Below are positions 52,101-55,100 of a stretch of 64,000 bases of DNA, piece by piece. Origin of the DNA: Eledone cirrhosa (taxonomy: Eukaryota); assembly GCA_964016885.1 (NCBI GenBank), contig OZ024740.1, forward strand, positions 332,072,001 through 332,136,000, in the 5' to 3' direction. The first letter of the stretch is position 1. Each line of letters opens with the position of its first letter. A program made the position numbers and the translations under genes. The notes beneath the pieces were generated by a model that did no database searches, was not told where the DNA came from, and saw nothing but the letters and a program-made list of their open reading frames with translations.

Positions 52101-55100
52101 GCCCGCAACCGTGCATTGTGTATGTATACTGGGACTGCGTGAATGTACACACTCATGTGAACGCAACGTAATACTAATACCCCACGTTGGATTGATAAAT
52201 GTTCGAGTGTATGCTTAAGAGTATATTTGTATATACTCTCTTGTATGAGTGCACATGTGTATATAGACATACACACGCATCCAGAAGTATAAAAGTATGG
52301 GTGGGTATATATGTCTGTACTAAGGGATTCGCCTAATCTCCAAAGCCGCAAAGCTATTGCTGTGAATATATATATCACCTGTGTCTAGTCTAAACAATAA
52401 CTTTTCCAAACACCCACTTTACTTTTCTTTAAAAATAACACCCACCTAGTTTTATGTCTGCCTTATACTTGGATATGGGGGCCTCTGTTGTATATATATA
52501 TATTCAACTGTGCGTACATATATATACACACCTGTATGGATTTGTGTGTGTAGATGTGTGTGTGTCTGAGGGGTAGGTGTGAGTGTATGTACAAGTCAAC
52601 CAACATAAGCCTTTTATTTCTAAATTTTCTAAACTATCTAAGTATTTGACTGTAAACATTATTTTAAGTATTACCACCCCACATTAATTCCTCTATTTGT
52701 ATGTGTGGATGTGTGTGTGTGTCTGTGGAGGTGGGTATGAGTGTATGTGCAAGCCAACCTACATAAGGTTTTTTTATTTGTAAATTTTCTACTCTAGCCA
52801 TAATTTTCAGTAGCAACACTCCACATAAATTCCTCAATTTAAGAATGACCTGTAGTATCTATTTCATACTATTAACCTTAATTGAATATATAACTGACCA
52901 AGAATGGTCATATGGAACTATTGTCATCTTGCCTGACGGTTTGAACTTTACAACAACACCCGCCTCTTTGAGGTCAAATACCAACCCTACTAGCATCTAC
53001 AAACTGACCAATGAGAATTAAAACTATTCCTGCTGACAACATTAAATTCTTCCTAACAAGCTCATATGTCCCAAGGCTCTGAAACCATCAACACTATAAA
53101 CACAGAGCTGGCATATCTAAGAACTGACTAACTGCCTGATGAGGTCATAGCCATTCAATGGCTATCATCGAAATATATATAGCAGTAAATAAAGGATTAT
53201 GAGTTCATGCAATTGACTTATGTTTCGTCACTATATATATATATCTGTTGCTTTCCTCTGTTTTTCTTATTTCTTCCTTTTTTCTTTTTTTCTTTCTTTC
53301 CTACTGTCTTTATTTATCTCTTTCTTTTCTCTCCATGCATTTCTCTCTCTCCGATATTTTTCCACGTTTTTTTCTTTTTCTTTTTTCTCTCTCTCCGTCT
53401 TTTTTCTTTCTCTCCGTCTTTTTCTAATTGTCCTTAACACTAAGACTTATTAAAATAATATAAACAATTCACTATCCAGATGGCTTCCAAAAATAATGGT
53501 TGCATTTTAAATGGGTACGTCAAAGCTGTTATATATTGTATTTTGTCTGATGAAGGCATACCATAATTTAATTTGGTATCCCTGAAATATGTATAATGAA
53601 ATAAATATGGTTTTATAAATATAGTTTCCATTTATTAATATCGTATATCTACTCCAAATACTTGTCGAGTGCTTTATATCAGTTATAAAAATGTTTACTT
53701 GTTGTATCCCAACAATTTTAAATAGAACTTTTGCATATATATATATATATATTCAAATTATAATGCGCATAGAACAAAGACAATGGAAAATAATCGAAAA
53801 AGCGGACAGTCCCATTTTCTAAGTCAGCTTCTGGAAGTCAGTACGGTTTCTGTTCATTAAGGTCCATAATCTTCAATCCAATTGACATTCGGATGTAAGA
53901 AGCAGGTAGAGACAAGTTATACCGTTAGGCAAATAACACATATAGAGACTGCCCAAGGGCTTGGCCAAAGAAGAAAAAAATATAGAAAAGAGAGAAATAG
54001 TAAAACAGAAAAGAATAAGGAATGTAATATTACACACACACACACACACATATATATATTTATATATATATATATATATATATATATATATATATATATA
54101 TATATATATATATATATATAGAGAGAGAGAGAGAGAGAGAGAGAGAGAGAGAGAGAGAGAGAGAGAGATTTTGAGTATATGTTGGTTGTATACCAACACC
54201 TCAGTATACAGGCTGGAGCACTCGACGAAGTGCGCAGGTTGGTTTGGTTACTCCGGAGTAATGTAAAATAAAGTTAAATAAAAAGTCAAATGTTTAAAAT
54301 TTAGCTTCGTTTGTTACTGCTATATATATTTCAGTGACAGCCATCTTTGGCTGTGACCTCTTCAGGTAGTTTGAATTAGTGTGGTATAGACAAGTACAAA
54401 TGTTGTTGAGGTGTATAATTTTTTCAATACTCTGATATGCCCAGTTCCTGGTTGGGTTGTTATTTCACTGAGGAACTGGAATCATATGATTCCAGTTCCT
54501 CAGTGAAATAACAACCCAACCAGGAACTGTCAATTGGATTGAAGATTATGGACCTTAATGAACAGAAACCGTACTGACTTCCAGAAAATTATACACCTCT
54601 CAACACTAATTCAAACTGCCTGAAGAGGTCACAGCCAAAGATGGCTGTCACTGAAATATATATAGCAGTAATAAACGAAGCTAAATTTTAAACATTTGAC
54701 TTTTTATTTAACTTTATTTTATATATATATATATATATATATATATATATATAAATTATTTTCGATGAAAAATACATGTATTTTTCATCGAAAAAATAAA
54801 TTTTTTTAAAATATTTTTGAATACGTCTCTTTTCATGATATTCGGATTACATTGAGTTCTTCATACGGATTGGACACTACCGTACATTTTGGTAGATTTA
54901 TCTACATATATATATATATATATATATTTATGTATGTATATATATATATATATATATATATATGTGTGTGTGTGTGTGTGTGTGTGTGTGTGTGTGTGTG
55001 TGTGTGTGTGTGTGTGTGTGTGTGTGTGTGTGTGTGTGTGTGTGTGTGTGTGTGCGAGTGAGTGCGCGTATGTGCGTGTATGTATGGCCAGCTTACAATT

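Follow-up and report, generated by a model that had tools for sequence, protein, structure and literature searches.

The window analysed here is a 64-kb stretch of the Eledone cirrhosa genome, and the features described below all lie within one intron of a minus-strand gene unless stated otherwise. This intron (50196–58162, −) belongs to an AMPA-type ionotropic glutamate receptor (iGluR) gene and separates two exons of the S1 ligand-binding region. The exon borders, at 58163 and 50195, were placed by exon matches to PF10613 and PF00060 together with splice sites, and the top PDB matches of the gene are AMPA subunits, which bears out the glutamate-receptor intron named in the original prediction for this DNA. 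About 3 Mb away (C1:335051039–335077571) lies another iGluR gene on the minus strand, whose exons are laid out similarly.

Four hammerhead ribozyme motifs span less than 1.6 kb of this intron. Hammerhead A (53131–53186, +) has its predicted cut after 53181, hammerhead D (53540–53603, +) after 53595, hammerhead C (54316–54370, −) after 54321 on the minus strand, and hammerhead B (54615–54669, +) after 54664. The core CUGA(U/A)GA, GAAA and UA is present in A, B and C, and all four motifs have the parts that define type I: CUGANGA, GAAA, UH and stems I and II. A structure descriptor made up of the core, stem I and stem II, run over the 64-kb stretch, recovered these 4 sites, compared with a mean of 0.03 (maximum 1) in 100 dinucleotide shuffles. 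A, B and C had already been predicted, and all three have intact cores and these same cut sites; D, the fourth motif with an intact core, had been overlooked.

The stems of the four motifs differ in several respects. The ACUGC-type stem I that had been ascribed to every copy is found in A and B, but C has a private G-to-A change (ACUAC in place of ACUGC) that leaves one mismatch. The stem II changes between A and B are as described before, including the C:C mismatch kept at pair 4, and D retains this mismatch in a stem II that differs from the other copies. The palindrome of stem III, given earlier as the four nucleotides AUAU, is 8 nt long, AUAUAUAU, and the corresponding box in D is AUAUGUAU. 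Pair 10.1-11.1 is G-C in A only, G·U in B and C, and A-U in D. The published type I consensus has G10.1-C11.1 and an unpaired base after A9, traits that are common rather than defining; none of the four motifs has the extra base. A search of Rfam, the check attached to the original prediction, gave no hammerhead match at the gathering score in the 64-kb stretch, nor at E ≤ 10 in 52500–55000. The hammerhead core is absent from the monomer minimum-energy folds of A, D and C.

The motifs lie in 5'-truncated insertions of three repeat families, named A, B and D after them, which are assigned below to Penelope-like elements (PLEs) of the Hydra clade. The family A copy (51821–53231, +) is tail-less, is 92% identical to a longer copy over 1413 nt, and has a short 3' end 50 nt past the predicted cut, with (TA)n on its flanks. 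It is joined head to tail through (TA)6 to the family D copy (53244–53734, +), which is tailed and has a long 3' end 139 nt past the predicted cut. Hammerheads B and C had been counted as separate copies, but they are the arms of one inverted insertion of family B, 98% identical over 119 nt and meeting at a junction palindrome (54479–54492). The tailed arm (54167–54485, −) has a long end 154 nt past the predicted cut and borders on (TC)n(TA)n, and the arm without a tail (54486–54720, +) has a short end about 56 nt past it. The whole unit is a compact 550-nt palindrome, and the same form is found at many other family-B loci. Sub-threshold Rfam matches to mir-239 and mir-23 at 54450–54521 coincide with the junction palindrome of the inverted pair and were rejected.

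Three further details of these insertions were recorded. A 59-nt insertion in the B arm (54528–54586, +) is 100% identical to the reverse complement of the local flank at 53829–53887 (+), a piece of an old repeat; since other copies of that repeat are only 76–79% identical, the insertion was templated locally, which points to end-joining repair or to a template switch into the flanking DNA. A (TC)n run precedes the (TA)n at 9 of 35 tailed family-B ends and at 0 of 38 tail-less ones (for example 54120–54167, and loci L015, L023, L024, L027 and L029). Family A has two subfamilies that differ in a middle segment of the 3' UTR (52022–52490; L137–L140, L142), with about 295 other bases in place of the segment of this stretch in L138.

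Other retroelement remains are scattered through the window. A decayed PLE of another clade lies at 56569–57538 (+); by eye, its reverse transcriptase (RT) N-terminal motifs resemble the Neptune-type rows of the alignment of Craig et al. 2021. Downstream of these motifs, at 57508–57538 (+), is a fifth hammerhead-like core with a weak stem I, which fails the descriptor. A C-terminal GIY-YIG remnant of a further family, with Hydra-like CxxC and CxH, lies beside (TA)n at about 18540–18826 (+). Other putative ORF remnants, RT, zinc-finger or RNase-H-like by eye, are at 32137–33187, 42394–43521, 47931–49064, 55382–56045 and 63256–63831.

Each motif with its flank has many copies in the genome, which share a fixed 3' end and have ragged 5' ends. 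Own-genome searches gave 290 (B), 1760 (A) and 1792 (D) first-look candidates, and up to 1852 per query; the best 40 candidates were scored for each query, yielding 40–54 matches, and none of these figures is a copy number. The original prediction was of a single non-coding, non-autonomous family, for which an autonomous partner was to be sought. The many copies were found, but the motif families themselves are coding: walking upstream from the motif leads colinearly into an ORF in the longer copies of all three. At locus L223, an unbroken frame of 735 aa lies between two hammerheads 4234 nt apart and has the motifs RWR, DKT, YRDD, CxCx5C, VVY..YVG, CxxC and CRH. At locus L144, family A is present as a partial tandem. 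The family A ORF of longer copies ends in the same 11 residues that open the copy in this intron, where 51822–51857 (+) holds the last 11 codons and the stop of the RT/GIY-YIG ORF, so that the statement that 51820–54720 has no coding remnant does not stand. From the stop to the predicted cut, the 3' UTR is 1361 nt in A, 1245 nt in B and 1795 nt in D (one copy each). Short copies look non-coding because 5' truncation falls within these 3' UTRs of 1.2–1.8 kb, and the long 3' UTR also accounts for full units of mostly 3.9–4.3 kb. In family D, all 150 scored matches to the RT core are at least 94% identical, and open frames reach 816 aa. The C-termini of the A and B ORFs are 56–58% identical.

These ORFs have the organization of PLEs: the 735-aa frame is a single ORF with RT (YRDD) and, at the C-terminus, a GIY-YIG endonuclease (VVY..YVG), and the copies include partial tandems (pLTR), inverted 5'-truncated copies and an optional tail. 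A piece of the family B ORF narrowly passes the Pfam cut-off for GIY-YIG (22.7 versus 22.6). Pfam recognised an RT domain neither in the 735-aa ORF nor in those pieces that bear the RT, and a PDB sequence search was also without an RT match. Atlas neighbours of the ORF carry HTH_animal, GIY-YIG and RVT_1, and 238 homologues were found with the full ORF as the query. A profile search of representatives gave 10737 hits, which contributes breadth only, and contigs aligned to a family-B copy indicate no more than its presence and are left out of the evidence. The motifs are thus minimal type I hammerheads of the PLE pLTR kind, as predicted, and form the 3' ends of PLE copies. This kind of motif is already known, and both PLE hammerheads and an octopus Hydra family have been published.

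The hammerhead is the conserved part of otherwise divergent 3' UTRs. Between sister families A and B it is the only part that aligns well (81% over 67 nt); the 3' UTRs of A and D do not align, and those of B and D have only a weak 33-nt match. Compared in this way, the sequences indicate that the hammerhead fold is kept by selection in the active lineages, in agreement with the original prediction, although the A/B covariation that had been read as selection on the intronic copies is divergence between sister families.

A broader descriptor, which required a long stem II and a box of 8 nt but ignored stem II pair 4 and self-complementarity, found 141 distinct sequences in 231 loci, mostly of families A, B and D. 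Pair 4 is C:C in 120 of the 141, C:U or U:C in 18, Watson-Crick in 1 and something else in 2 – a pyrimidine mismatch in 138. The mismatch is present in all 8 clusters of these sequences, five of which lie beyond A, B and D and are not assumed to be attached to Hydra ORFs. Five different boxes, AUAUAUAU, AUAUGUAU, AUGCGCAU, AUGAUCAU and ACAUGUGU, are all self-complementary, as is the box in 8 of 8 cluster representatives; a box would be so by chance with a frequency of about 0.06, and the boxes are not independent. The dimer-type stem III and the covariation across genomic copies that had been anticipated were therefore both found. The central pairs of the palindrome are impossible within one strand, so the covariation points to a dimer, and the ribozyme is predicted to work only as a pair held by the 8-nt palindrome. 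The five extra clusters, with the same mismatch and palindrome, are represented at L004 (2590–2660), L150 (1917–1982), L008 (2997–3062), L060 (1370–1435) and L084 (4676–4757); unrelated short-stem hammerhead families were also seen alongside them.

An outgroup was available in metagenome loci of related ORFs, 55 of 77 of which have a hammerhead. In the 49 distinct outgroup hammerheads the box is 9–10 nt long in 44, 8 nt in 3 and 6 nt in 2, and none of the 49 has a pyrimidine mismatch at pair 4. The distance from ORF to core in the outgroup has a median near 200 nt (35 measurements, with one outlier of 1197), compared with 1245–1795 nt to the cut in the families described here. The 26 published Hydra hammerhead rows likewise have a stem III box of 9–10 nt and, by eye, no C:C in stem II (PMC8557442). 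A literature search for a C-C mismatch in stem II of retrotransposon hammerheads found no paper, and Lunse et al. or the figures and supplements of Cervera and De la Pena may show one; general background on the ribozymes is reviewed in PMC6765202. A 3' UTR of 1.2–1.8 kb, a tail of about 90 nt, a long stem II whose pair 4 is a pyrimidine mismatch and a covarying 8-nt palindrome are, judged from these alignments and counts, traits of the lineage, and their novelty is modest.

The 3' ends of the copies are bimodal: short and tail-less, about 50–56 nt past the cut, or long and tailed, about 140–155 nt past it. Across families, the tail between the two end classes retains a terminal hairpin and short common motifs. 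End classes and 5' starts were counted in top-scoring copies only, and the family-D loci were chosen with a query containing the tail, so that end counts there are biased and the null is approximate. Among 39 divergent pairs, 35 are long plus short, 4 are long plus long and none is short plus short; three of the four long-plus-long pairs proved to be misclassified tandem copies, with an inner copy that runs into the ORF, and dropping them leaves 35 of 36 as long plus short. A tail at one end only has been described as frequent (Craig et al. 2021, PMC8557442). The 5' ends were followed at 60 loci with an ORF start, one of which, without an upstream tail, was left unscored. Of the 59 scored copies, 43 continue past the cut site on its upstream side, and no copy has its 5' start within 4 nt of that site; the closest starts are at +5 and at about +9, the latter having appeared at −9 through an alignment artefact of (TA)n. 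The ribozyme cut was accordingly rejected as the definer of element 5' ends, and the template's 5' end is likely not determined by the ribozyme. In 13 of 17 unit-length direct pairs, the two pLTRs resemble each other more closely than 95% of background comparisons do, three direct pairs only 0.7–1.2 kb apart having been excluded from this count. Only 3 of 17 inverted pairs in family B, a young family, exceed background, so a one-donor origin is weakly indicated there.

These ends suggest a mechanism of insertion. The element's GIY-YIG/RT protein would cut both strands in (TA)n, and each of the two DNA ends would prime reverse transcription of uncut RNA from a single donor, at two points about 50–56 nt and about 140–155 nt downstream of the ribozyme cut site. 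Truncated cDNAs joined head to head would give inverted pairs like B/C, and single and partial-tandem copies like A and D would be the other outcome. Folding of the ribozyme would require dimerisation by way of the 8-nt palindrome, probably aided by protein, and the ribozyme apparently would not set the 5' end of the copied RNA. We infer the two primings, the uncut template and the single donor. The ends fit the work on an anole PLE in vitro (PMC11167929): both strands were cut and extended there, two internal starts bracketed the tail, the template was uncut RNA, and the ribozyme needed protein. Against this scheme, no difference in start site between the strands was seen in that system.

The role of the ribozyme might be otherwise in the same elements. 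If hammerheads cut a tandem transcript twice and the unit circularised, RT running round the circle would yield the partial tandems, as has been proposed (PMC4209133). Such a circular template also predicts that no 5' ends fall at the cut site, that upstream and downstream pLTRs are nearly identical, as in the 13 of 17 pairs above, and that the monomer stays uncut. On the other hand, 4 of the 17 direct pairs are no closer than background, ribozyme-dead mutants of the anole element insert normally in vitro (PMC11167929), and linear read-through of a tandem donor predicts the same DNA as the candidate circle. As an account of what the ribozyme does, we consider the circle possible but rather unlikely. 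More doubtful still is the idea that the 8-nt palindrome serves chiefly to signal the pairing of templates, much as a retroviral dimer-initiation site does: the pLTR pair would be held together while a dimeric RT-endonuclease primes the two DNA ends at two fixed sites, and the fixed C:C would be a docking or protein site that gates cleavage until after copying. Palindrome-paired pLTRs would explain both the tailed plus tail-less composition of 35 of 36 inverted pairs and the absence of starts at the cut site. The preferred reading remains two primings on uncut RNA.

The clade of the three families was called from motifs and from a by-eye match of RT to a published alignment (PMC8557442 supplement), not from phylogeny. 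Marks of the Hydra clade are RWK, DKT for DKG, a CxCx5C linker, no CCHH, CxxC plus CxH, and (TA)n targets (Craig et al. 2021, PMC8557442). Families A and D have RWR and DKT, corresponding to RW[KR] and DKT; all three families have the endonuclease marks (CxCx5C, no CCHH, CxxC, CxH); and (TA)4 is found no more than 30 nt from the end of 153 of the 171 copies. Hydra elements are described as generally shorter than 3 kb, a descriptive rather than diagnostic trait that most of these full units, at 3.9–4.3 kb, do not share. By these marks, the three families are Hydra clade PLEs. Neptune, the first guess, was dropped on the motif test. Elements of the Neptune or Nematis clades also have a C-terminal endonuclease, a cysteine linker and a bias to microsatellites (Craig et al. 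2021), and the Hydra assignment was made without an RT tree; nevertheless, membership in either is very improbable, since the L223 ORF has DKT and every other Hydra mark above, and among the 120 homologues listed DKT or DKS occurs in 103 and DKG in 1. A search of the literature from 2021 on for Penelope, Hydra clade and hammerhead found no paper later than Craig et al. 2021. Octopus repeat annotation counts active Penelope-like families, with no Hydra or hammerheads in its main text (PMC13282606). Our results suggest that Hydra-clade elements are far commoner in the E. cirrhosa genome than the single few-copy octopus family described by Craig et al. 2021.

A non-coding, non-autonomous retrozyme or SINE-like family mobilised in trans has a similarly slight chance of being correct, and is already largely refuted. 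Most copies sampled by 3'-end queries have no ORF, the B/C unit is compact, and retrozymes have been derived from PLE pLTRs (bioRxiv 10.64898/2026.07.22.740005), all of which such a family would accommodate. Against it are the ragged 5' ends without a fixed unit, the colinear run into an ORF in three families, and a family A copy that begins inside the ORF; the non-coding tandem units with a hammerhead in each that characterize non-LTR retrozymes were not found, nor were short tandem arrays.

Relative to the host pre-mRNA, C is the only sense copy, and A, B and D are antisense. The antisense of B is predicted to hold hammerhead C in a long duplex (−291 kcal/mol). As the sole sense copy, with its private stem I change and this predicted pairing, C is unlikely to cleave the host pre-mRNA. 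Within the AMPA-receptor pre-mRNA, the inverted pair (54260–54722) would form a duplex of about 200 bp, and is a candidate substrate for A-to-I editing. Co-option of the ribozymes by the host for cutting or regulating its glutamate-receptor pre-mRNA, as four motifs so close together in one intron of a neuronal gene might suggest, is most improbable given their orientation in a minus-strand gene, the mismatched and duplexed C, copies 92–100% like mobile relatives, and a clustering that follows (TA)n targeting, with several families together at other loci too.

It is highly probable, then, that the four motifs are the 3' ends of 5'-truncated coding Hydra-clade PLEs inserted in (TA)n, by the mechanism proposed above, likely dead passengers without a host role. 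New here are a large set of young families, one or more of whose ORFs are uninterrupted, and clear regularities in the genome – a long end paired with a short one, no copy beginning at the cut site, and covariation possible only in a dimer. These families make the role of PLE hammerheads and the origin of inverted and tailed insertions testable in vitro.

The closest known relatives are in the Hydra clade, which includes Hydra-1_Obim of Octopus bimaculoides (PMC8557442). The C-terminal GIY-YIG, an RWK-like motif, DKT, CxCx5C, CxxC, CxH and the lack of CCHH are shared, as are (TA)n targets, a hammerhead near the 3' end and inverted 5'-truncated copies. The units described here are longer (3.9–4.3 kb versus 2.1–2.7 kb for published complete Hydra consensuses), as is the tail (about 88–98 nt versus 30–40), and the hammerhead sequence of Hydra-1_Obim differs from those found here (PMC8557442). 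Non-LTR retrozymes (Li et al., bioRxiv 10.64898/2026.07.22.740005) also carry, in repeated DNA, a type I hammerhead that stems from PLEs, but they are short non-coding tandem units, whereas these are ragged 3' ends of coding elements. Known type I minimal hammerheads resemble the present ones in their short stem I, long stem II, palindromic stem III and dimer type, and in being scattered in truncated copies, with opposite-strand pairs 100–700 bp apart. Stem II here is 10–11 bp long and its pair 4 is a fixed pyrimidine mismatch, there is no unpaired base between 9 and 10.1, and G10.1-C11.1 is not conserved. The Poseidon element PAc of Anolis (Frangieh et al. 2024, PMC11167929) is of another clade, with an ORF that starts inside the hammerhead rather than about 190 nt after the cut site as here, and a strict pairing of one long and one short end is not quantified in that paper. 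Two internal starts bracketing the tail, AT-rich targets and an uncut RNA template are the features that PAc and the Eledone families have in common.
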